Positions 16,869-63,811 of a stretch of DNA of 64,000 bases are shown here, piece by piece. Under the pieces are notes generated by a model. It was not told where the DNA came from. It worked only from the letters and a program-made list of their open reading frames with translations, and ran no database searches. The stretch spans positions 29,437 to 93,436 of the forward strand of contig CAZUDQ010000006.1 of the NCBI GenBank assembly GCA_964619365.1. The letters are read 5' to 3'. The position numbers and the translations under genes were made by a program. Source of the DNA: an uncultured archaeon. GTDB lineage: Archaea > Altiarchaeota > Altiarchaeia > JAFGQM01. Within the stretch, counting starts at the first letter, position 1. Every line of letters begins with the position of its first letter.

Positions 16869-17060
16869 ATGGCACGTGTAGTTGACGAGACTTTTGAGGC
16901 GCTTTTTGCGATAACCGATATCAGGCAGCTCCTTAGGGAGACAAAACCAGATTACTCCTTAAACAAGGAGCAAATGGCTCTTTTAGAGAAAAAACTTGAA
17001 CGCGCAAGAGTGGCTCTTGAAAGAATCGAAGAGGACTTTAGGGAGACAAGTAAGAAATGA
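16869..17060 (+). CDS. Small helical protein, probable SepCysE N-terminal-domain homolog (SepCysSN)
   Basis: 63-aa helical ORF overlapping the pscS start (ATGA); matches the known small partner-gene arrangement. Confidence 0.6.
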   Translation: MARVVDETFEALFAITDIRQLLRETKPDYSLNKEQMALLEKKLERARVALERIEEDFRETSKK

Positions 17061-18235
17061 ACCCGATAGGCACACTTCCCGTAAGAGAACGGGAAGAGGA
17101 AGCCATAAATCTTCAGCCGATTCAGGCGGCAGGAAGACTCACATCCGATGCCATGAAAGCACTCATTGCTTATGGTGACGGATATTCTGCATGTGACTTG
17201 TGCCTTAAGCCGTTTCGTCTTGATACTATTAAAAAACCTGATATCGCTCAGTTCCACACCGATGTAGCAGACTGGTTGGGCGTCGACCAGATAAGAATAA
17301 TGCCTGGAGCGCGCAGGGCTTTTCAGGCAGTATGTTTAAGCCTCCTTTCAAAAGGGGACACCGCACTTATTACCCAGTTTGGGCATTACACAATAGGTCT
17401 TTCAGTTGAGCAGGCAGGAGCCACCTGGCGCGAGATACCTGCTGATGAAACAAATCACATCACGCCTGATGCTACAGCAGAGAAAATAGAGCTTGTAAAA
17501 AAGGAGACTGGTTCCGTCCCAAAGCTCATAAACGTTGCGCATTTTGACTACCAACTGGCTAACGAACATGATATAAAAGGGATCATCAAGGTCGCTCACG
17601 AATACGATGTTCCAGTACTTTATAATGGTGCTTACACAATTGGTGTCATGCCAGTAAACCACAAGGATTTTGGCGCGGATTTCTATGTCGCCTCAGGCCA
17701 CAAGTCTATGGCGGCTCCAGCCCCAACTGGCGTTCTTGGAATGAATGATGAATGGGCAGAAAAAGTCTTTAGGACGACTGACGCGACCGGGGACGTTACC
17801 GGACGAAAGTTTGGAGTAAAGGAAGTCCAGCTTTTAGGCTGCACAGTCATGGGCGGCCCGCTTTTTGCTATGATGGCGTCTTTCCCCCACGTCAAGGAAC
17901 GTGTTAAACACTGGGACACTGAACTTGAAAACGCTCGCTGGTTTGTTGACCAAATGTTAAAAATTGAAGGGACTTCAGTTGTTTCTGAGATGCCAAGAAA
18001 GCACACGATAACAAAGATAAAGACTGACGGCTTTAACAAGATTGCAGATACGCACAAGAAAAGGGGGTTTTTCCTGACTAAAGCACTCTCATCGCGTAAG
18101 ATAACGGGGCCGTTTCCCGGCGCAACGCGCGAGTGGAAGTTCTCAACTTACGGCCTAACACGAAAACAGGTAGAATACACCGCTAACGCGTTTAAGGAAA
18201 TTGCTCTTGAGAACGGGCTTAATGTTTCTGACTAA
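17057..18235 (+). CDS. pscS: Sep-tRNA:Cys-tRNA synthase (SepCysS)
   Basis: INLQPIQAAGRLT, GDGYSACDLC, ASGHKSMA (PLP Lys), LLGCT. Confidence 0.93.
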   Translation: MNPIGTLPVREREEEAINLQPIQAAGRLTSDAMKALIAYGDGYSACDLCLKPFRLDTIKKPDIAQFHTDVADWLGVDQIRIMPGARRAFQAVCLSLLSKGDTALITQFGHYTIGLSVEQAGATWREIPADETNHITPDATAEKIELVKKETGSVPKLINVAHFDYQLANEHDIKGIIKVAHEYDVPVLYNGAYTIGVMPVNHKDFGADFYVASGHKSMAAPAPTGVLGMNDEWAEKVFRTTDATGDVTGRKFGVKEVQLLGCTVMGGPLFAMMASFPHVKERVKHWDTELENARWFVDQMLKIEGTSVVSEMPRKHTITKIKTDGFNKIADTHKKRGFFLTKALSSRKITGPFPGATREWKFSTYGLTRKQVEYTANAFKEIALENGLNVSD

Positions 18236-18251
18236 ATTTTTAGGAAAGAGC

Positions 18252-19025
18252 TTACTTTTTATGTTGCCGTCTTTTTGCTTTTCTCTCAGCAGAAATCTTT
18301 TTTAGCTTCTTTGCTTTACCGCCGTCTTTCCTTAGGGTTTTTCTGAGTTTAGCACCCTTTGCACGCCAGACTATGACATTTTCCAGATTTGCCGCTTCAT
18401 CGTGGGCCAGCTTTTCTGTATGGACAACGGAGCGCTTGATTGCTTCGTATTTACGTACGTCCTGTAAGGTTCGCGGGTTCTGTTCTTTAAAGCTTTGAGA
18501 CTCTTTTGCCTTGGCTATTTTTGCATCTAACCAGTCGGCATGCGATTGATTTCCTCTAGATTGGTTTGCTTGATGTTTTTGAAGTCTGCGCAATTCTTTT
18601 AAGGGGACTCCGTCCACTTCGGTTTTTGGACCGATTCCTAATTCTTTTGCAGGCTTAAACTTTTTTGGGTTTCTTTGGCGTTTTCTCTCGGCAGAAATAT
18701 TTTTTAATTTCTCGGCCTTTTTACCTCCAGCCTTCAGATCTGCACGCAATTTGCTTGCTCTTGTGCGCCAAACCCTGACCTGGCCGACAACTTCATTTAA
18801 TGCTCCAGCTTCATTTCTGGCCCCCCTGGCAAGTCTGTTCGCATCCCTTGCAAGTGATGTATTCTCCCGGTAGTTCCCAACTCCTGCCGCCAGTTCATAA
18901 TTCAAACCCTTTTGTTGATGTTTTTGTGCTTCTTTTCTTTTGGACTTGATTAAGCGATGTATTTGCTTAACTGAGATATCGGTGATATCTATTTCTGGGC
19001 CAAGGTTTGGTTTTTTGCTAGGCAT
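18252..19025 (-). CDS. Basic WRT-GG repeat family protein 1 (two modules)
   Basis: Start MPSKKP; VWRTRASKLRADLKAGG and VWRAKGAKLRKTLRKDGG...ISAERK. Confidence 0.75.
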   Translation of the reverse strand: MPSKKPNLGPEIDITDISVKQIHRLIKSKRKEAQKHQQKGLNYELAAGVGNYRENTSLARDANRLARGARNEAGALNEVVGQVRVWRTRASKLRADLKAGGKKAEKLKNISAERKRQRNPKKFKPAKELGIGPKTEVDGVPLKELRRLQKHQANQSRGNQSHADWLDAKIAKAKESQSFKEQNPRTLQDVRKYEAIKRSVVHTEKLAHDEAANLENVIVWRAKGAKLRKTLRKDGGKAKKLKKISAERKAKRRQHKK

Positions 19026-19130
19026 CTTAATTGCTGAAAAGTTGTATATGATAATTAATTTCAAAAGAATAAAAACACTAAAGGTAAAACGCTCGCTCTT
19101 GATTTATTATTAATGAAAAGTAAGAAAATC

Positions 19131-19853
19131 TTACTTTCTTTTCTTGGAGATTGCCTTTAAGCGGTCCGCCTCAAAACCACCCTCGCGTAAAGTTTGCCTC
19201 AATGGAGCCCCCCTTGTACGCCACATAACTTTATGTCCTGCTTCTGCTGCCCTATTAGAAAACTTTTTTACTTGACCGCGCGCTGTCCACATTGTATTTA
19301 TGTGCCGATTATACTCCGTGCGCGCACCATAATCGCTGCCCCCTTCTATTACGGCATTCACTCCTTTTTTCTTAACCATCCGATAAGCTTTTTCATCAGC
19401 TACATTAGCTAGACGTTCATGCTCCTTGGCTAATTTAAGGTTACGTTTTTGAACTCTGCTTAGTTGATTTACTTTTAATCGTTCTACTTTTACCTTAGAC
19501 CCACCGTCTCGCAAAAATTGTCTAGTGGGTGCTCCGTATGTGCGCCAAGTGTGTGCCCAGTTATACTTAGCGGCTTCATCTGCAGAGAAATTCCGGTTCT
19601 TAGTTTCTACTGTTACTAAATCATTATATTTGACATAATCAGGATGTTCCTTGTTTATACGCGCAATATTGCGGGCGTTCTTATATGCTTCAATCCTTTG
19701 TTCAGCAACACCTGTGCGCTTAATAAAATGTTTTTTAGCAGTTGTTAACTGTTTGGCAGACATATCCTTAAGCTCTGTATGCAAATTGACTCCTTTGGGT
19801 TTTGTTGGAAACTTCGCAAGTTTTGGGTGATATCCTCTGGGTCTTGTGGGCAT
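19131..19853 (-). CDS. Basic WRT-GG repeat family protein 2 (two modules)
   Basis: MPTRPRG; TWRTYGAPTRQFLRDGG and MWRTRGAPLRQTLREGG...ISKKRK. Confidence 0.75.
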   Translation of the reverse strand: MPTRPRGYHPKLAKFPTKPKGVNLHTELKDMSAKQLTTAKKHFIKRTGVAEQRIEAYKNARNIARINKEHPDYVKYNDLVTVETKNRNFSADEAAKYNWAHTWRTYGAPTRQFLRDGGSKVKVERLKVNQLSRVQKRNLKLAKEHERLANVADEKAYRMVKKKGVNAVIEGGSDYGARTEYNRHINTMWTARGQVKKFSNRAAEAGHKVMWRTRGAPLRQTLREGGFEADRLKAISKKRK

Positions 19854-19913
19854 TTTAAGTTGTAATCTAAGATTTGGTCTAAAAAGATAAAAATGCCAGA
19901 AAGTAAGAAAATC

Positions 19914-20600
19914 TTACTTTTTGTTTTTAGAAATGATGCGTTTTGCTTTTCTTTTCTGCGAGATTTTATTTAGTTTCTCCGATTTGGGGCCACCGTCTTT
20001 TATTGCTTGCTTTATGTCTGCCCCTTTAGTGCGCCACATGAGTTTAAATCTTACTTTTGCGAGCTCTTCGGTATGAATATTTTGAGCTTTTTTGGTTGCG
20101 ATAAAGTTGATTTTGTGTGCACGATAAACTTCCTTGGTTGTTGTTTTAGCTTTCCCAGAGGGCATTTGTATGTATTTTTTAAAAAGTGCTATTGCAACAT
20201 CTTTATGTGTCTTTTTAGGTTCCTGACATGCAACAAGCCATTTCTTGCGTTTTTTTTCGTTTTTGCGCAGTTCATTCAACTCTTTTTTTAGGTCTTTTGC
20301 CCTCTTATTATATTCTAATGATTTATCAGCATGTACGTTTTTAGCCTCTGTGCTTATTTGCAACGAATCAACATAGCTATTATAATTTTTGTCACCTTCT
20401 TTCGTGCTTTTGATTGCTTTTTTGAGTGCAACTAGATTCTTTTGATGTGCTTTACTAAGGCCCATGTAATATTTTCTGCCGGCAATGGCCTGTTTTACTG
20501 AAATTGTAGAATTAACATTAGTAGCAGCGTTAAACCCCTTTGGTTTCTTTGCCAAGTTGGTGAATTTTTCTCTAGGCTTTTTTACTGATTTTGAAACCAT
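19914..20600 (-). CDS. Basic WRT-GG family protein 3
   Basis: MWRTKGADIKQAIKDGGPKSEKLNKISQKRK. Confidence 0.75.
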   Translation of the reverse strand: MVSKSVKKPREKFTNLAKKPKGFNAATNVNSTISVKQAIAGRKYYMGLSKAHQKNLVALKKAIKSTKEGDKNYNSYVDSLQISTEAKNVHADKSLEYNKRAKDLKKELNELRKNEKKRKKWLVACQEPKKTHKDVAIALFKKYIQMPSGKAKTTTKEVYRAHKINFIATKKAQNIHTEELAKVRFKLMWRTKGADIKQAIKDGGPKSEKLNKISQKRKAKRIISKNKK

Positions 20601-20661
20601 TTTTAATTAGCATGCCTGACTAGGATAAGCAATAGACTTAAGAGTAAAGAGATAAAAATCC

Positions 20662-20849
20662 TAAAAAGTAAGAAAATCTTACTTTCTCGGAAATACCCGA
20701 GGAGTATTGTCGGGTTACTTTGTAACCCAACGTAATAGAAATTTAAAAAGTAAGAAAATCTTACTTTATCGGAAATACCCGATGAGTATGGTCGGGTTAC
20801 TTTGTAACCCAACATAATAGAAATTTAAAAGGTAAGAAAATCTTACTTT
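20662..20849. repeat. Two tandem 82-bp multi-hairpin units plus a terminal palindrome
   Basis: Period exactly 82 bp; near-identical units; third copy at 52653-52755. Confidence 0.9.
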
Positions 20850-21373
20850 TTCGTTCTCCTTGATTTTTTTCTCATATTTGAAATAAGTTTTAGTCTAAAT
20901 GCCCCAATCCCACCTTTTTTCATTTTAGTCTTAAGCTTAGATCCGCGCGTGCGCCAGATAATTGCAGTCTCGTAATCTGCCCTTCTATTATTGAGGTATT
21001 TAGTGTAGGCTCCCTTTGATTGCTTGATTTGTCCGTCATAATCTTTTCTTCTGTACTTTAGCTCGCTTAAATTCAGCTTGTTAACATCAAGACCCTCTCT
21101 TAACTTTACTAATTCGGATTCTGCAAGCCGCCGTCCCTGTTTACCCTCTTTTATGTCTGCCCGAGATGATCTAAGTTCTTCCTGCTTACTGGCAATTTTC
21201 CGAAGTTCCTCGACATGTTTTATTCTACTACGAACCTCAGCTTCTGGCATTCCATTAATCTCTTCTTTTCTCAAGTCACCAAGAGGTGCAATTTGGAGTT
21301 GGTATGGTTCTCTGTGAGGTGGGCGTTTGATTTTAAACCATCCCAAAGAGGGCTTTTCCTGTTTTGTGGGCAT
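20843..21373 (-). CDS. Basic WRT-GG family protein 4
   Basis: MPTKQEKP; IWRTRGSKLKTKMKKGG...LISNMRKK. Confidence 0.75.
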   Translation of the reverse strand: MPTKQEKPSLGWFKIKRPPHREPYQLQIAPLGDLRKEEINGMPEAEVRSRIKHVEELRKIASKQEELRSSRADIKEGKQGRRLAESELVKLREGLDVNKLNLSELKYRRKDYDGQIKQSKGAYTKYLNNRRADYETAIIWRTRGSKLKTKMKKGGIGAFRLKLISNMRKKSRRTKK

Positions 21374-21472
21374 TTAGTTATAATCGATAGGGGTTAAGGC
21401 TAAAGGAATAAAAAATTCAAAAGTAAGAATTTCTTACTTATTTCTTTAGGTTCCTGGAAAAGTAAGAAAATC

Positions 21473-22054
21473 TTACTTTTTGTTTTTAGAAATGAGGACC
21501 GTGCGTTTTGCTTTTCTTTTCTGCGAGATTTTATTTAGTTTCTCCGATTTGGGGCCGCCGTCTTTTATTGCTTGCTTTATGTCAGCTCCGCGAGTACGCC
21601 ACATGAATGCATGATTAAATTTCGCCGCTTCTCCAGCAGCTTTTTTCGCTTCGTCTTGTCCTGCCGTCCTCAACTGGCTATATCTAGTAAACAAAGGACC
21701 CTCCTTGCGTGCATCAGCTACATTACGAGCTTTCTCATATGCATTGACCCTCTTTATATTTGCTTTGTTAAGTGCGTTGTAATAGTTTCTAGCCAGTTTT
21801 ACTTGTCTTGTGGACATATCCTTAAGTTTAGCATCCGGATTAACTCCAATTGGTTGTTCCGGCAACTTGATGGATTTTGGTCTGTAGCTATTACGTCCCC
21901 CTCGCTTGCCCACACCAGTACCCTGATGACTAAACTCCATTGCACCTCGTGGGCGCGACCTTGACGTTCTGCCTGGAACAAACTCAAACTGGATTCCATA
22001 TTGACTCGCAGCAGTAGACTTAATTTCTCCGTGCGATCTCGTAGGTCTTGGCAT
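21473..22054 (-). CDS. Basic WRT-GG family protein 5
   Basis: MPRPTRS; MWRTRGADIKQAIKDGGPKSEKLNKISQKRK. Confidence 0.75.
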   Translation of the reverse strand: MPRPTRSHGEIKSTAASQYGIQFEFVPGRTSRSRPRGAMEFSHQGTGVGKRGGRNSYRPKSIKLPEQPIGVNPDAKLKDMSTRQVKLARNYYNALNKANIKRVNAYEKARNVADARKEGPLFTRYSQLRTAGQDEAKKAAGEAAKFNHAFMWRTRGADIKQAIKDGGPKSEKLNKISQKRKAKRTVLISKNKK

Positions 22055-22104
22055 TTTAAGTTATATACTAGAATTCATTCTAAAAAGATAAAAATAAAGA
22101 AAAA

Positions 22105-22120
22105 TGGGGATTTCTCCCCA
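22105..22120 (-). terminator. Hairpin after Cys-rich gene
   Basis: TGGGGA-TTTC-TCCCCA followed on the minus strand by a T-rich run. Confidence 0.55.
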
Positions 22121-22127
22121 GTTAGTC

Positions 22128-22967
22128 CTAGACGCAACACGCCCCACATGAACTGTGTCCACAGGTGCTTGCCGAAAGGTCTGTACTTATCCAACAAACG
22201 CCAGTGCAGGTGCTTGTCGTAGACTTTGCGACATAACAGGTTCCTCCAAGAAGTCCAGCTTCCGTTGGACACCCTTCCTCAGATACTGTAGAGTCACTGC
22301 CATCCATCGAATATGTGCAACCACAGTTTTTCATCTTTTGGATTGCCTGTTCCTCTGGCGTGGGGCTTGGTGGGTTTGGCATTGTGCACATCTCGTTTGA
22401 GTCGTGCCCGCAACCCGTTCCATCAGATTCTACCCAGCACTTGCCGTCGCATGATTCTTTTGTCATTACCCATTGGCTGCCCTGCTTTTCTGTGTAAACG
22501 TCACTTGCTTCCGAGTCATACCAGCAGCCACAGTTTTCCATAGCGTCATTTGCTTCAGACTTTGTAAGCTCTGTTGGCTCAGGAGGTTCTGGGGGGTTTG
22601 GCATTGTGCACATCTCGTTTGAGTCGTGCCCGCAACCAGTATCATCAGTTCCTACCCAGCATTTTCCGCCGCATGATTCTTTTGTCATTACCCACTGGCT
22701 GCCCTGCTTTTCTGTGTATACTCCGTTGGCATACGGGTCATACCAGCAGCCGCAGTCTTTCATTGCGGCATTTGCCTGGGATTCGGTCAGGTCTGTTGTC
22801 GGTGTGGGTGTCGGGGTTGGAGTGGGTGTTGGCGTCGGAGTCGGTGCGGGGGCTGGAGAACCACCCATAAGGACTACGGCCGCTATTATCGCAAGCACTA
22901 TCACTACAACGCCAATAATTACTAATTGTTGTGTATCTAATGTCATTTTTGATTTGCTTAAAAGCAT
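22128..22967 (-). CDS. Membrane-anchored Cys-rich repeat protein (3 modules)
   Basis: N-terminal TM, (PT)n linker, two CGCWYD...CG.KCW...CGHDSNEMC repeats, terminal module ending CGACCV. Confidence 0.8.
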   Translation of the reverse strand: MLLSKSKMTLDTQQLVIIGVVVIVLAIIAAVVLMGGSPAPAPTPTPTPTPTPTPTPTTDLTESQANAAMKDCGCWYDPYANGVYTEKQGSQWVMTKESCGGKCWVGTDDTGCGHDSNEMCTMPNPPEPPEPTELTKSEANDAMENCGCWYDSEASDVYTEKQGSQWVMTKESCDGKCWVESDGTGCGHDSNEMCTMPNPPSPTPEEQAIQKMKNCGCTYSMDGSDSTVSEEGCPTEAGLLGGTCYVAKSTTSTCTGVCWISTDLSASTCGHSSCGACCV

Positions 22968-23063
22968 AAAATCTTATGGCAGATTTGATTTAAATGAGAA
23001 TGCCTAAGGAAGAATAAGATAATTGCAATAAGAAAAAGAATAAAATAAAAAAAGAAAATATTT

Positions 23064-23079
23064 GGGGAGTCACCTCCCC
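23064..23079 (-). terminator. Hairpin after Cys-rich gene
   Basis: GGGGAG-TCAC-CTCCCC followed on the minus strand by a T-rich run. Confidence 0.55.
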
Positions 23080-23087
23080 TTAGCTAC

Positions 23088-24605
23088 TTAGAGACAACAC
23101 GCCCCACATGAACTATGTCCGCAAGTGCTTGACGAAAGGTCAGTGCTTACCCAGCAGACGCCTGAACATGTGCTTGATGTAGACTCTGCAACCCAGCACT
23201 CGCCACCAAGAAGTTTTGCTTCAGTTGGACAACTCTTCTTTGAAACTGTTGAGTCGCTTCCAGTCATAGAATAGCTGCAACCGCAGTTCTTCATCATCTC
23301 GATTGCTTTTTCCTTGTCTGTTGGCTCAGGTGGATCTGGCATTGTGCACATCTCGTTTGAGTCGTGTCCGCAGTTGTAAGCATCTGTGTCTATCCAACAC
23401 TTTCCGCCACAATTCTCTTTGGTCATAACCCACTGGTTGCTCTTCTTCTTTGTAGACACATCACTTGCACTTGGATCATACCAGCAACCGCAGTTTACCA
23501 TTCTCCTATCTGCTTCATCCTGGTCAATTGTGCAATCAGCCTTTGTGATATGCGTCTTTCCAGAGTATAGGTTTATTCTACATTCACCCTTACAACTGTC
23601 ATGCGTTATAACAAGGTCGTCGCCATCATATCTTGTGTGGCTTTTACTGCTACCTGCATCAAACGGGCATCCATTGTCTTCAAGGCGCCTGACAGCCGTA
23701 CTCTTTGACATCTTACACTGTGGGTCGCCTGGAATCTGTGTGTCACCAGTGTTCACATTGATTTTACACTGTTCCTGGCAATTCTCCTCTTTCATAATAT
23801 AGTAGTCTCCACTGCGGTAGACGTCAACATCACTGTCTGAAGGGTCAAATGGACAACCTGCAGCTTCCATTTTTGAAACCGCCTGGCTTCTTGTTAATGG
23901 GCCTTCTTTACATGCTGGACCGCCTGCATCAACGTGGACATATCCTGTGTTCTTGTTACAGGTACACTGTCCATTACAGCCTGTCTTTTGCATGACATAC
24001 TGGTCAGCACTCCATGTTACTGAGACACCAGTGTCGCCGTAATTATAGAAACATCCGCCGGATTTCATCTTATCGATACATTCCTGCTGTGTGAGCCCTG
24101 GAGTTAGTCCCGTGCACATCTCGTTAACATCATGTCCGCAACCCGAACCGTCAAGATTTACCCAGCATTTTCCACCACATCCGGATTTCGAGATAATCCA
24201 TTGGTTACCTTCTTGGGCTATCGACTCGTCTGGGTCTGATAAATCATACCAGCAACCACATGCCACCATTGCCGATGTTGCTTCAGACTTTGTTAAGTCC
24301 TGTGTCGGAGTTGGCGTTGAACCGCAGTCTGCAGTTATATCAATGTTGCCTGACTTTTCGTTGATTGCACATGAACCGGTGCAACCTTCTTTTGTCATCG
24401 TCAATACGTCACCTGAAATCGAGACTGAGACGCCTTCCTCACTTTGTGAGTATGGGCATGTTGAACTTTCAAGTCTAGATATCGCTTCACTTGGTGTCAG
24501 TTCGCTACTTGATGAACCGCCGCTTAGTAAAACAACTGCTGCGATTACAACAACTAGGACTACTACCACTAAAATCACTATTTGTTTAGAATTGTTTGAA
24601 TCCAT
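23088..24605 (-). CDS. Membrane-anchored Cys-rich repeat protein (7 modules)
   Basis: N-terminal TM; six modules of about 60-65 aa plus the same terminal module (CGACCL). Confidence 0.8.
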   Translation of the reverse strand: MDSNNSKQIVILVVVVLVVVIAAVVLLSGGSSSSELTPSEAISRLESSTCPYSQSEEGVSVSISGDVLTMTKEGCTGSCAINEKSGNIDITADCGSTPTPTQDLTKSEATSAMVACGCWYDLSDPDESIAQEGNQWIISKSGCGGKCWVNLDGSGCGHDVNEMCTGLTPGLTQQECIDKMKSGGCFYNYGDTGVSVTWSADQYVMQKTGCNGQCTCNKNTGYVHVDAGGPACKEGPLTRSQAVSKMEAAGCPFDPSDSDVDVYRSGDYYIMKEENCQEQCKINVNTGDTQIPGDPQCKMSKSTAVRRLEDNGCPFDAGSSKSHTRYDGDDLVITHDSCKGECRINLYSGKTHITKADCTIDQDEADRRMVNCGCWYDPSASDVSTKKKSNQWVMTKENCGGKCWIDTDAYNCGHDSNEMCTMPDPPEPTDKEKAIEMMKNCGCSYSMTGSDSTVSKKSCPTEAKLLGGECWVAESTSSTCSGVCWVSTDLSSSTCGHSSCGACCL

Positions 24606-24681
24606 TTTGGATTGATTAATAATATCCCCGATAATAGTTATGGAATTTCTTATTTAAATGCAAATAATCAAAGTAAAGGCA

Positions 24682-25434
24682 ATGCTTGAGATAAAGAATT
24701 TGTCTGTCGGTATTGAAGATAAAAAGATACTGGAGGACATTAACATCAAGGTAGGTTCGGGCGAGACTTATATGATATTTGGCCCCAACGGCAGCGGCAA
24801 GACTACATTATTAAGGGCTATTCTCGGCTATCCAAAATATGATGTGCTCAATGGAAAAATAGAACTTAATGGAAAAGAACTTACAACGTTACCAATAGAC
24901 AAAAGAGTAAAACTTGGTCTTGGAATGGGGTTCCAGCATCCCCCTGAGATAAAGGGGATAACGCTTCTTGATATGCTTAAGATTTGCGAAGGTAAAGGTC
25001 CTGAAGACGATTTATCAAACGATGCAAAAAACCTGATAAAAAAATTAAATATGTCAGATTTCCTTGAAAGGGATGTCAATCGAGGTTTTTCCGGAGGGGA
25101 AAGGAAGCGCTCAGAAGTCCTTCAACTGCTTCTTATGAAACCGCACCTGATGCTTCTTGACGAGCCGGACTCAGGCGTTGATGTAGAAAGCCTTGCACTA
25201 ATCGGAAAGACTATAAATGATTACATCAAAAAAGAAGATGCCTCGGCGATGATAGTCACTCATCAGGGAAAAGTCATGGATTATATTGCGGCAAGCCACG
25301 CATGCGTCCTTATCGGTGGAAAGTCTTATTGTTACAAAGGACCAAAGGGCATAATGAAGGATATCGAAGAGCGTGGATATCGTGCATGCGTCAACTGCCC
25401 TTTGCGAAAGGAGGATGATAACTGTGGAACGTAA
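24682..25434 (+). CDS. sufC: Fe-S assembly ATPase SufC (SmsC-type)
   Basis: GPNGSGKT, VNRGFSGGERKR, LDEPDSGVD, C-terminal CVNC. Confidence 0.92.
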   Translation: MLEIKNLSVGIEDKKILEDINIKVGSGETYMIFGPNGSGKTTLLRAILGYPKYDVLNGKIELNGKELTTLPIDKRVKLGLGMGFQHPPEIKGITLLDMLKICEGKGPEDDLSNDAKNLIKKLNMSDFLERDVNRGFSGGERKRSEVLQLLLMKPHLMLLDEPDSGVDVESLALIGKTINDYIKKEDASAMIVTHQGKVMDYIAASHACVLIGGKSYCYKGPKGIMKDIEERGYRACVNCPLRKEDDNCGT

Positions 25435-26560
25435 AGACAAGTCGTCAGACATCCTCTCAGACCTTCCAGAGGAGATATTAAAGGCGGCGGCAAAGGTCGG
25501 TGTGACTAGAGAAGATAAGTCAAATGATAGGGCCGGGACCTACTTCCAGCTTGATGAAAACAGGATAGATGCTGCAATAAACAAACGCATGGAAGGTCTC
25601 ATTGAGATAATGCCTATTGAAGAGGCTCTCAAAAAATACGCCTGGCTTAAAGATTATTCCTGGAATCTTGTTCCAAAGGATAAAGACGAATTCACAAAAG
25701 AGGTCGCAAAAAACGGCAAAGGCGGTTACTTCATGAGAATACTAAAAGACGCTGATGTGACATTTCCCCTACAATCATGCCTTATGGTTTCTGACGGTGA
25801 ACGCCAGCGCGTCCATAATATAATAATAGCTGAGGAGGGTTCTAACTCGCGAATAATCACCGGTTGTGCCAAACATCCGCACGCGCAAAATGGCGAACAT
25901 CTTGGAATCTCGGAATTATATGTCAAAAAGGGCGCAAAACTTCATTTTACTATGATTCATGACTGGGCACAAGGGACAAAAGTCCGCCCAAGAAGCGTGA
26001 CAAATATTGAAGATGGTGGGGAATTCATTTCAGACTATATATCTCTTGCACCTGTAGCAGACATACAGATGTACCCAAAAGCCGTCTGTAAGGGAAAAGG
26101 ATCGCGCGCTGCACTCAATTCCATACTTCTTGCAAAAGGCAAAAGCAATCTTGATATTGGAAGCGAGATTGTGCTTTCTGGAAAGGGCTCGCAAGGTGAA
26201 ATAGTATCACGCTCAATTGCAAAAGATGAGGCTACACTTATTGTCAGGGGGCGCCTAGTTGGCAAGTCTAAAGAATGCACGGGGCATTTGGAGTGTCAGA
26301 GCCTTAACCTGGGGGAAGCAAATATCCATGCTATCCCTGAGCTAAAGGTTGTTACAGAAGGTGCAGAACTTTCACACGAGGCCGCAGTTGGCAAGATATC
26401 TGATGTCGAACTTGTCTACCTCATGTCGCGCGGCTTAAGCGAAGATGAAGCAACGGCAACAATTGCACGAGGTTTTTTAGATGCAAAAATACTTGGTCTT
26501 CCAGAAGAACTTGAGGCGAGAATTAAAAAACTGGTCGACGAGGCGGCTATTGGAAACTAG
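25415..26560 (+). CDS. sufB: Fe-S assembly protein SufB/SufD family (SmsB-type)
   Basis: FPLQSC, VHNIIIAEEGS, GHLECQ, ELSHEAAVGKI, YLMSRGL; start 25415 or GTG 25424. Confidence 0.92.
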   Translation: MITVERKDKSSDILSDLPEEILKAAAKVGVTREDKSNDRAGTYFQLDENRIDAAINKRMEGLIEIMPIEEALKKYAWLKDYSWNLVPKDKDEFTKEVAKNGKGGYFMRILKDADVTFPLQSCLMVSDGERQRVHNIIIAEEGSNSRIITGCAKHPHAQNGEHLGISELYVKKGAKLHFTMIHDWAQGTKVRPRSVTNIEDGGEFISDYISLAPVADIQMYPKAVCKGKGSRAALNSILLAKGKSNLDIGSEIVLSGKGSQGEIVSRSIAKDEATLIVRGRLVGKSKECTGHLECQSLNLGEANIHAIPELKVVTEGAELSHEAAVGKISDVELVYLMSRGLSEDEATATIARGFLDAKILGLPEELEARIKKLVDEAAIGN

Positions 26561-26565
26561 ACCGG

Positions 26566-26937
26566 CTAGTTCTTATCTCTTGGAAACAAGTTTTTTACTT
26601 CCAAAGGCATGAGTTCTTTGTGTTTATCCACAGGTATTTTTCTAGGGGAAATTGGCTCTCCATAGGTACCCATGTGTCTCCGTGACATTTTAGATCCAGA
26701 AATCACTATGTCTGACCCCTCATGTTTAAAAGTTATGCTTCGTATGAGTTGTTCTCGGGGCAACCATTGTTCATGACTTATTTTCATCCCTGTGGGTGAT
26801 TTTCTCCAGGTGAGCTTGTCTCCTGCAGGCATCGATTTTTTATATTCCCGTAGCATCTGCCTTAAATTAGGCATGAAGGGATGTTCCTTGTTCGTAGAAC
26901 TCTTTCTAACTGGATTTTTCCTGGCGGGCATTGCCAT
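26566..26937 (-). CDS. Hypothetical basic protein (MP-R/K start)
   Basis: MAMPARKNP...; fills the gap between sufB and porC on the opposite strand. Confidence 0.55.
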   Translation of the reverse strand: MAMPARKNPVRKSSTNKEHPFMPNLRQMLREYKKSMPAGDKLTWRKSPTGMKISHEQWLPREQLIRSITFKHEGSDIVISGSKMSRRHMGTYGEPISPRKIPVDKHKELMPLEVKNLFPRDKN

Positions 26938-52652: not shown

Positions 52653-52755
52653 GAAGTAAGAAAATCTTACTTTATTCCGAAATACCCGATGAGTATGGTC
52701 GGGTTACTTTGTAACCCAACGTAATAGAAATTTAAAGGTAAGATTTTCTTACTTA
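52653..52755. repeat. Third copy of the 82-bp element flanked by two 21-bp palindromes
   Basis: Near-identical to 20747-20849; right palindrome has a TTT instead of AAA loop. Confidence 0.9.
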
Positions 52756-62779: not shown

Positions 62780-63811
62780 CTATTTCCGTCTTCTTCTCAT
62801 CTTTTCCAGATGTTTCTTATGTATCTCGTTTAGATGTTTCTTATGGAATTCTTTCACCAGTCCCGAAGTGGGGAAATGCCCCCTGCGCAAAAGCATTCGC
62901 TGGTAAGCCGGGATTCTGCGATCTGGGACGCCCTTGACTTTTAATGCATGTTGTAGTACCTTGGCATGCGACCATTTCTTTGGTATTTCGTTTCTAAGTG
63001 CTAGATAAAGGCCTAGATTTTTCGGCCTAATCCCATTTCTGTTTAACACAAACTTAACGTCCTTGACAATATGTTTTGGGTCATGGCCTGCCTCGGCTGT
63101 AGCTTTAAGTGTGGGGGTTATTGCAACAAAGTGTTCATGTGTGATTTGTCTATGGTATAAAGCATTACCAAGTTCCTCAGCAACTCCCTTTGGGTCATGG
63201 CCCGCCTCGGCTGTAGCTTTAAGTGTGGGGGTTACTGTAGCCAAATCGTTCCAGACAAACATGCCACAAGGCGACCCTCCAAGTCCCTCACTCAGGAGAT
63301 TGTGTGTATTGTAGCCGGCTTTGGCTGTTGCTTCCAAGACAGGAGCTATTAGAGTAAGATTCTTATCGGTGAGTTGTCTCGAATCCAAATATCTTCTAAA
63401 AGCTCGGGTGAGATCCTTTGGGTTTTGGCCTGCTTTGGCTGTTGCCTCCAAACTCGTTCTTATCGCTTCTGCGGATTTTGCAAAGTTCTCATGAGTGATT
63501 GCTTTTGAGTTTAAACCTGTTCTAAGGGTGTCGGCGAGGTTTTCAGGGTTGTGGCCAGCCTTGGCTGTTAATTCAAGTGAGGGAGCCATTAGCTCAAGTT
63601 CCCGGTGAGTTAATGCTTTTGAGTATAACTCCCATTTGAGAGTTCTGAGGAGATTGTGAGGGTTGTGGCCTGCTTTGGCTGTTGCATTTAATGTAGCCAA
63701 CATATTTGAAAGAGCAGTTTTGGAGACTTTGTTCTTATCTAAAATATTAGCGAAATCTTTATCGTGTTCACCAATTTCTTTTAGTAATTGCTCCCGAGTC
63801 TGTTTGGGCAT
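62780..63811 (-). CDS. Helical 38-aa repeat protein with basic termini
   Basis: Six L.ATA[KE]AG[HQY][ND]P-type repeats; MPKQ start; RRRRK end. Confidence 0.75.
   Translation of the reverse strand: MPKQTREQLLKEIGEHDKDFANILDKNKVSKTALSNMLATLNATAKAGHNPHNLLRTLKWELYSKALTHRELELMAPSLELTAKAGHNPENLADTLRTGLNSKAITHENFAKSAEAIRTSLEATAKAGQNPKDLTRAFRRYLDSRQLTDKNLTLIAPVLEATAKAGYNTHNLLSEGLGGSPCGMFVWNDLATVTPTLKATAEAGHDPKGVAEELGNALYHRQITHEHFVAITPTLKATAEAGHDPKHIVKDVKFVLNRNGIRPKNLGLYLALRNEIPKKWSHAKVLQHALKVKGVPDRRIPAYQRMLLRRGHFPTSGLVKEFHKKHLNEIHKKHLEKMRRRRK

Follow-up and report, generated by a model that had tools for sequence, protein, structure and literature searches.

What do five tandem genes do when their products are all extremely basic and match no described protein family? 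The genes lie at 18252-22054 of a 64,000-nucleotide stretch (the window, whose coordinates are used throughout) from an uncultured archaeon of the Altiarchaeota (assembly GCA_964619365.1, contig CAZUDQ010000006.1, positions 29,437 to 93,436), whose genome is ~85% complete with a GC content of 0.43. An initial annotation, made from the sequence alone, had described a family with variable helical bodies and a constant terminal module, and had offered export of host-directed effectors, nucleic-acid binding and DNA packaging as possible roles. We find that the genes are genuine, that their module is under purifying selection and that the family is restricted to one lineage. Nucleic-acid binding seems to us the most plausible of the proposed roles, and we tentatively favour the reading that these are cytoplasmic accessory proteins binding nucleic acids or another polyanion. 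It is a reading in which we infer ligand, location and expression alike, and to which we give somewhat less than an even chance.

Five basic proteins built from one or two homologous units

All five genes lie on the minus strand in the open reading frame (ORF) listing, co-oriented as in the initial annotation. Each protein consists of one unit (genes 4 and 5) or two (genes 1, 2 and 3) of ~110-135 amino acids (aa). Gene 5 (21473-22054, 193 aa) carries an Arg/Gly-rich N-terminal arm of 56 residues ahead of its single unit, while gene 4 (20843-21373, 176 aa; ORF listing and BLASTP) consists of one unit. Gene 3 (19914-20600, 228 aa; ORF listing and alignment) has two units, the module of the first being decayed, and gene 2 (19131-19853, 240 aa) has two units with modules at residues 94-130 and 202-240. 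Gene 1 (18252-19025, 257 aa) is a fusion of two complete units, with modules at residues 77-115 and 211-249. Its longest frame, 18252-19064, gives 270 aa from a TTG start; the ATG at 19025 gives the 257-aa form, which begins MPSKKPN and agrees with the 176-257 aa of the initial annotation.

The WRT..GG..KIS..RK module occurs at 21512-21628 in gene 5, and its other six copies are at 20867-20983, 19947-20063, 19458-19574, 19134-19250, 18681-18797 and 18279-18395 (all minus strand), with hidden Markov model (HMM) scores of 59-80 bits. A regular expression for the WRT..GG motif, run on the six-frame translation of the 17 contigs (1,208,397 bases), gave seven matches, all within the five array genes, and none in 2000 trials with residue shuffles of the five proteins. 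As had been noted, a C-terminal copy is present in all five genes and an additional internal copy in genes 1 and 2, and L-x-x-I-S-x-x-R-K directly follows six of the seven modules, the exception being the internal copy of gene 2.

Whole units are homologous at 25-40% identity by BLASTP. Residues 8-140 of gene 2 match residues 57-183 of gene 5 at 40% identity (E 1e-22), residues 118-256 of gene 1 match residues 21-176 of gene 4 at 31%, residues 9-115 of gene 1 match residues 118-240 of gene 2 at 29%, and genes 2 and 3 align over their full length at 25%. Faint remnants of the module can be aligned at residues 187-193 of gene 2 and in the first unit of gene 3; on this alignment gene 3 is apparently a protein that has lost its first module, and gene 2 one that carries an additional remnant. 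The weaker motif reported upstream of the helical bodies is clear in genes 5, 2 and 3 but only loosely kept in genes 1 and 4.

The strongly basic character reported for these proteins is evident in isoelectric points (pI) of 10.35-10.90 and net charges of +26 to +43, with 0-1 Cys residues per protein; gene 5 has a pI of 10.90 and a net charge of +30. When the 1061 non-overlapping ORFs of at least 100 aa in the genome are ranked by density of net positive charge, the five stand at positions 1, 9, 10, 12 and 17, in a list that also includes an ORF overlapping an MC1 match (C3 68510-68821) and another that, from its sequence, we take to be ribosomal protein L19e. They are also very hydrophilic, with a grand average of hydropathy (GRAVY) of -0.99 to -1.18 and a Gly content of 3.5-8.3%, and account for four of the 14 ORFs, among 1061 in the genome, with a GRAVY below -1.0. 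Neither a transmembrane segment nor a signal-peptide core was found in any of the five, the highest Kyte-Doolittle 19-residue window being 0.32, which bears out what the initial annotation had said; nor is there an RR pair, as in a twin-arginine signal, within the first 35 residues.

The genes are protein-coding and the module is under purifying selection

Selection was assessed on the six ungapped 39-codon modules, the internal module of gene 2 being left out for its 2-residue indel. The proportion of nonsynonymous differences (pN, 0.14-0.48) was below that of synonymous differences (pS, 0.29-0.89) in all 15 module pairs. The corresponding rate ratio (dN/dS) was 0.23-0.59 in the nine pairs with a computable dS, the other six being saturated, and pS reached 0.59-0.89 in 14 of the 15. 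Conserved residues are encoded by varied synonymous codons (Arg by cgt and cgc; Thr by act, acg and aca; Gly by gga, ggg and ggt). Since synonymous sites are saturated and pN stays below pS, the paralogs must be old and the module held by selection. Thus, the array genes are genuine protein-coding genes. Their codon usage is near the genome's own.

The stretch was found in six salt-lake metagenome runs, none of them listed as RNA, and in contigs of four of these the locus is near letter-identical; the four may belong to a single campaign, and one may be the source of the assembly. Across the four runs the only variants within the array's coding sequence are at 20157 and 20160, both at third codon positions and, on our own reading, synonymous. 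The last 105 nt of genes 3 and 5 are 93% identical, which suggests that the cassette ends underwent gene conversion or were recently exchanged. In run X4, a contig of low depth (2.34) connects 19936 directly with 21502, so that the common 3' ends of genes 5 and 3 are joined and 1565 nt, gene 4 among them, are missing; the contig may represent a deletion or have been produced in assembly by the 105-nt repeat.

The family is restricted to one lineage

None of the libraries of known proteins and domains accounts for the five sequences. The best Pfam-A match had an E-value of 0.063, all matches being far below the cut-offs; the best NCBIfam score was 18.1 bits against a cut-off of 234; PADLOC matched none of the five; PDB sequences gave a single match at E 0.42; and PHROGs gave nothing convincing, the best match (E 3.6e-4, 20.7 bits) being to a helical stretch of gene 3. 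The histone fold, Alba and MC1 (PF00808, PF01918 and PF05854) did not match any of the five proteins. SAP (PF02037) was not among the Pfam matches of the seven modules scanned alone, even at E<=10; a scan of whole genomes with PF02037 is uninformative, as it found none in 61 genomes of the class but also none in 14 control genomes. A resemblance to the C-terminal helix of L19e was set aside when hhalign gave the unit alignment a probability of 0.1% against an ORF at C4:5118-5564 that we take, from its sequence, to be L19e.

Searches of much larger collections gave the same result. Among 1.84 billion representative proteins the module profile found six at E<=0.001, namely the array's own five and P0006, which consists of low-complexity RTYGAD repeats and which we judge spurious. 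A word-indexed search of 5.8 billion clusters returned the array's own proteins only (for gene 3, two among 840 candidates), and the same search with the alignment of eight units returned four proteins, all from the array, among 1611 candidates. No pattern match was confirmed among 141 in genome contigs, 598 in metagenome contigs and 16 in the 2.9 million viral contigs of IMG/VR; tblastn against the 50,697 phage records of INPHARED found no match, and the string WRTRGA found none in a literature search. When the profile was run on the 61 species genomes of the class, which make up the entire phylum in the collection, the module was found in this genome only. The genomes searched are 57-97% complete, and that of the same genus, in which the module was likewise not found, is 83% complete. 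A 16-residue match in G030 (E 0.004) lies within a P-loop ATPase, presumably RadB-like, and was judged spurious. The family is therefore restricted to one lineage, with no relative elsewhere in the public data searched, and the statement of the initial annotation that it is unrecognised holds well beyond the curated libraries.

The unit is predicted to form a helical hairpin with a conserved open end

AlphaFold2, run on the alignment of eight units, gave a model of gene 5 residues 57-193 with a mean predicted local distance difference test (pLDDT) score of 84.8 and a predicted TM-score (pTM) of 0.67. Helices are predicted at unit residues 26-59, 63-109 and 112-135, so that each unit would pair two helices into a long antiparallel hairpin and add a third helix after it. 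When the conserved sequences are mapped onto this model, ..DMS.RQ falls at the start of helix 1, KEGP in the hairpin loop, WRT.GA..L+..L+ in the final part of helix 2, GG in the turn and KLNKIS..RK in helix 3.

Conservation, expressed as the mean BLOSUM62 pair score, is 2.0-2.8 across unit residues 96-137, with its peak at residues 96-125, against -0.2 to 0.8 in the body; the C-terminal ~40 residues are far better kept than the rest. The contrast between variable body and constant module thus stands as far as conservation goes, but two of its implications do not: the bodies are not unrelated, since whole units are linked at the identities given above, and the module is not a detachable tag, because in the model it runs from the last part of helix 2, through the GG turn, to helix 3. 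From the topology of the model, rather than from its coordinates, the conserved parts would converge at the open end of the hairpin.

Foldseek found no match to the unit model at E<=0.001 in PDB or BFVD, and the ESM Atlas, queried with genes 5 and 4, gave no usable feature match (TM-score by query <=0.37). Neither the module HMM nor these fold searches, then, connects the family to a characterised domain.

Each array gene has a TATA-like element, and most stop within a palindrome

On the minus strand, TTTTTAT lies 40 nt before the ATG of gene 5 (22088-22094), at -40 in gene 2 (19887-19893), -41 in gene 4 (21408-21414), -50 in gene 1 (19069-19075) and -58 in gene 3 (20652-20658). Of all 7-mers, TTTTTAT and its neighbours show the strongest enrichment, ~9-fold, at -50..-16 of the 824 ATG-started ORFs of the genome, and we read TTTTTAT as the organism's probable TATA element, with short leaders. 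No Shine-Dalgarno-like sequence was seen by eye upstream of the array genes, and a scan for sigma-70 promoters and terminators gave nothing above shuffles. Each gene is predicted to have its own promoter and separate termination, a monocistronic layout.

In genes 2-5 the TAA stop is part of a palindrome, AAGTAAGATTTTCTTACTT, with Ts after it. The copy at gene 2, AAAGTAAGAAAATCTTACTTT, is at 19117-19137, and equivalents are found at 19900-19920 (gene 3), 20829-20849 (gene 4) and 21459-21479 (gene 5). Three more copies lie at 21420-21440 and, between genes 4 and 3, at 20665-20685 and 20747-20767; gene 1 has the left arm only. The corresponding RNA stems of ~10 bp have folding energies of -8.0 to -8.7 kcal/mol for genes 2, 3 and 5 and -5.1 for gene 4, and there is none for gene 1. 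Unrelated genes elsewhere in the genome also stop within the palindrome. Its 17-nt form, AGTAAGATTTTCTTACT, has 36 copies in the genome with at most one mismatch, seven of them in the array, and occurs also on contigs C1, C3, C4, C7, C8, C10, C11, C13 and C15. Among relatives, one or two copies are present in five of the seven other genomes of the family, and one each in two of the remaining 53.

The palindrome often borders a conserved 82-nt unit. Two such units, palindrome-bounded, in tandem and 95% identical (family D4), lie between genes 4 and 3 (20662-20825), and the repeat recurs at 52656-52752 of the window and on contigs C3, C4, C10, C11 and C13. The palindrome looks like an intergenic repeat of the repetitive extragenic palindrome (REP) or miniature inverted-repeat transposable element (MITE) kind, multiplied in this lineage only. 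A clustered regularly interspaced short palindromic repeat (CRISPR) array was ruled out because the sequence between palindromes is itself 95% conserved, and a C/D-box small RNA was rejected, no D box being seen by eye; Rfam gave, over 17500-23000 at E<=1, just two chance microRNA rows. The 17-mer also has a copy inside a conserved gene, which we take to be PIN-domain-like, in three relatives (L055 in G001, L058 in G004 and L057 in G006), where it codes for ..KSKKILL... In the present genome (G000; C13:6000-7400, L060) only the C-terminal part of the PIN-like gene is detectable, from residue 138; that part and a cluster of four palindromes are ~330 nt apart, separated by a small AbrB-like ORF.

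A shared N-terminal leader

Four of the five array genes (1, 2, 4 and 5) start with Met-Pro. A simple heuristic finds this start, with a stretch rich in Lys, Arg and Pro behind it, in ~27 ORFs of the genome, seven of which begin with exactly MPKPK. Most of the ~27 encode basic proteins (pI about 10); those in the window are the four array genes and the ORFs at 62780-63811 and 26566-26937, both on the minus strand. Together with the array genes, the leader ORFs make up at least eight unrelated paralog families, mostly tandem pairs. None of 20 leader ORFs reached a Pfam cut-off, and 18 had no match at E<=0.01. The DNA word for MPKPK has seven occurrences in this genome, where its reversed control has none, and between 0 and 2 in each of the remaining 60 genomes of the class. 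The leader family C2:114172/115006 was not found in those 60 genomes, whereas the family with a member at 62780-63811 has an outside homologue that is 34% identical and starts MGKPKPEKPK.

It is conceivable, if quite improbable, that the array is the largest member of a genome-specific repertoire in which the leader marks a common fate. Export, delivery into a partner, packing into a particle or vesicle and attachment to one nucleic-acid scaffold would all be candidates. If so, the repertoire would amount to an archaeal targeting or effector system of an undescribed kind, with the WRT-GG-KIS head as the working end of one effector type.

Genomic neighbourhood

The array is flanked on one side by a SepCysS-like gene on the plus strand (17057-18235; PF05889, PF00266) and on the other by a pair of genes for Cys-rich proteins. 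The latter (22128-22967 and 23088-24605, minus strand) are paralogs, each of which combines a membrane anchor at its N-terminus with Pro/Thr linkers and Cys-rich repeat modules (CGCWYD ... CGGKCWV ... CGHDSNEMC); the pair has no Pfam match and no further copy in the genome. Elsewhere the window encodes glutamine synthetase, ThiM/ThiE, a SufC-like ABC ATPase, SufBD and a subunit of pyruvate:ferredoxin oxidoreductase, and nothing in this gene content points to the symbiont that the initial annotation had thought probable. mcrA was not found in the 85% complete genome.

The interval between SepCysS and porG (18252-26560, compared with L017-L020) holds the array, the two Cys-rich membrane proteins, the SufC-like ATPase and SufBD, and its gene content differs from this in the four same-family relatives inspected. 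In three of these an IscS-like gene follows SepCysS, and in two of the three it is succeeded by an IscU-like gene, a basic ORF and then porG; the fourth has porG immediately after SepCysS. The labels IscS and IscU are our own reading of the sequences. SufBD was not found in four of five relatives, and IscS and IscU were not found in this genome. The array therefore lies within a segment of ~8 kb that was replaced in this lineage. At 20-22 kb the GC content dips to 0.383 from values of 0.41-0.47 elsewhere. Just upstream of porG, on the opposite strand, G000, G004 and G001 each have a basic ORF, 123-223 aa long (window 26566-26937, L017 7251-7892 and L018 9469-10140, all minus strand); the N-termini resemble MP.RK, and the three, which cannot be aligned with one another, may be fast-evolving positional counterparts.

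Discussion

Cytoplasmic polyanion binding is favoured because the extreme positive charge is evenly spread, because the proteins have no export or membrane feature, and because of the monocistronic layout and the cationic head of the predicted fold. The head would consist of the G..N...[DT][MI]S.KQ start of helix 1, the W-R-T-x-G-A..L+..L+ end of helix 2, the GG turn and the KLKKIS..RK of helix 3; conserved and strongly cationic, it would bind a polyanion, most likely DNA or RNA. The hairpin stalk is variable, the conserved residues would lie at its open end, and the proteins would act as architectural or chaperone-like accessory factors. The family would have arisen by tandem and internal duplication. 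That the genes are resident cellular ones is argued by a codon usage near the genome's and by the lack of any integrase, tRNA or viral relative in our searches.

A close parallel would be with the archaeal chromatin proteins (histones, Alba, MC1, Sul7d/Cren7), which are likewise small, very basic and soluble, with a promoter for each gene and with paralogous and fused copies; haloarchaeal histone doublets, for example, are fused copies. The presumed ligand, nucleic acid, would be shared as well. The array proteins have no sequence or fold relation to these families, and the chromatin families are widespread whereas the array family occurs in one of 61 genomes of the class. At the level of short motifs, A-x-L-R-x-x-L-K-x-G-G-x-K-x-E-K-L-K-x-I in the module recalls the consensus of SAP/HeH domains, in which two short amphipathic helices are joined at Gly. 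In contrast to SAP, the loop of the array module is 3-4 residues shorter, and its first half lies within a helix of 47 residues in the AlphaFold2 model.

Several observations weigh against nucleic-acid binding. Scans with Pfam, NCBIfam and PDB sequences revealed no recognisable DNA- or RNA-binding domain in the five proteins. The genome already has two histone-fold genes (C8) as well as Alba and MC1 (on C7 and C3), which leaves no obvious vacancy for a chromatin protein and makes DNA packaging, as first suggested, unlikely as the main role. A family without a match in the same-genus genome and the other genomes of the class would also be unusual for a core component of nucleoid or ribosome. 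The fold model is built on eight paralogous units from one genome, and the prediction for gene 2 from its single sequence was poor (pLDDT 55.8). Finally, structural comparison with VIA-align reached a Z of no more than 9.1, below the tool's bar of ~13 for helical models, with 32 chains at Z>=8. The matches are many kinds of long helical hairpin (Snf7/ESCRT-III, Vipp1/PspA, EsxA, AvrRps4, the seryl-tRNA synthetase arm, Rop) and, all under the bar, include membrane-remodelling and secreted proteins.

Some of these matches, together with the leader, could instead be taken to indicate exported or delivered effectors, directed against a host, partner or competitor, with the leader as targeting signal and with the target's acidic surfaces, membranes or nucleic acids as the site at which the cationic hairpin acts. 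In keeping with this, the family is lineage-specific, tandemly duplicated and without known domains, the Met-Pro start recurs across unrelated paralog families, the MPKPK word is enriched here, and even the outside homologue of one leader family begins in a similar way. The secreted hairpins EsxA (Z 8.0-8.1), AvrRps4 (8.2) and phyllogen (7.7) resemble the unit in being hairpins of ~100 residues from lineage-specific, duplicated families. However, their Z scores of 7.7-8.2 are below the bar, and in the array proteins the Trp lies inside helix 2 rather than in the hairpin loop as in WXG100 proteins, to which they are unrelated in sequence. Type VII secretion is a bacterial system, and archaea are not known to have secretion machinery of such a kind. 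The proteins have no Sec or Tat signal and no hydrophobic segment, and Lys/Arg/Pro-rich arms are also common in nucleic-acid-binding proteins, a point made in a paper on archaeal ribosomal proteins (10.1101/671966). With no sign of a symbiotic lifestyle in the genes of the window and no viral or phage relative, we found nothing that points to the export signal or host-directed effectors of the initial annotation, and consider this explanation quite unlikely. Cargo or remnants of a virus, plasmid or mobile element, such as genome-coating or packaging proteins that arrived with the replaced segment, are also unlikely. The altered gene content between SepCysS and porG, the exchange of IscS/IscU for SufBD, the local dip in GC and the concentration of palindrome copies in the array would all fit such an origin. 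Against it, no tyrosine recombinase or integrase (PF00589) was found in the assembled 1.2 Mb of the 85% complete genome, although all 14 control genomes have one, and no tRNA was found in the window; there is no convincing PHROGs match and nothing in the viral contigs, phage records or BFVD; and the paralogs are old, with codon usage near the genome's.

Two further explanations turn on the physical character of the proteins. The top rows of the VIA-align search could suggest polymers of the ESCRT-III/PspA/Vipp1 kind, which would bind and remodel membranes through a basic helical hairpin: the N-terminal domain of Snf7 (8wb7_A) scored Z 9.1 over 94 aligned residues at an rmsd of 4.4, the Snf7 core 8.7, Asgard ESCRT-IIIB 8.3, Vipp1 8.2 and PspA 7.7, and the predicted unit shares with these proteins a long basic alpha1-alpha2 hairpin and a further helix. 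Unrelated hairpins score equally well, however, all below the bar of ~13, and Foldseek found nothing at E<=0.001. No Pfam cut-off was reached, Snf7 and PspA not being even among the matches at E<=1. ESCRT-III proteins have an acidic C-terminal half, whereas the array proteins are basic throughout, and we regard this explanation as very unlikely. A role as hydrophilins or as stress protectants of the late embryogenesis abundant (LEA)/dehydrin type in a hypersaline organism is very unlikely. The proteins are very hydrophilic and Lys-rich, as the GRAVY and Gly values show, and the stretch occurs in salt-lake metagenomes; the N-terminal motif and the conserved Lys-rich segment, both C-terminal and internal, recall the Y and K segments of dehydrins. 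Nevertheless, no Pfam match was found, prediction gives the units a defined fold, in which the Trp is invariant and Gly-Gly forms the turn, instead of disordered repeats, and the proteome is otherwise ordinary, with a median pI of 6.27 that is not acid-shifted. What probability remains beyond polyanion binding and these four rivals belongs to some other explanation.

The orphan family at this locus is thus clearly bounded, its fold is modelled with confidence and its conserved site is defined; its importance is uncertain. If the leader is a targeting signal, the locus would point to an unknown archaeal delivery route. If, on our favoured reading, the proteins do bind nucleic acids, they would be a family associated with chromatin or RNA that one archaeal lineage had invented for itself, and a clean case of new architectural proteins arising by duplication and fusion of a unit beside a full classical set.

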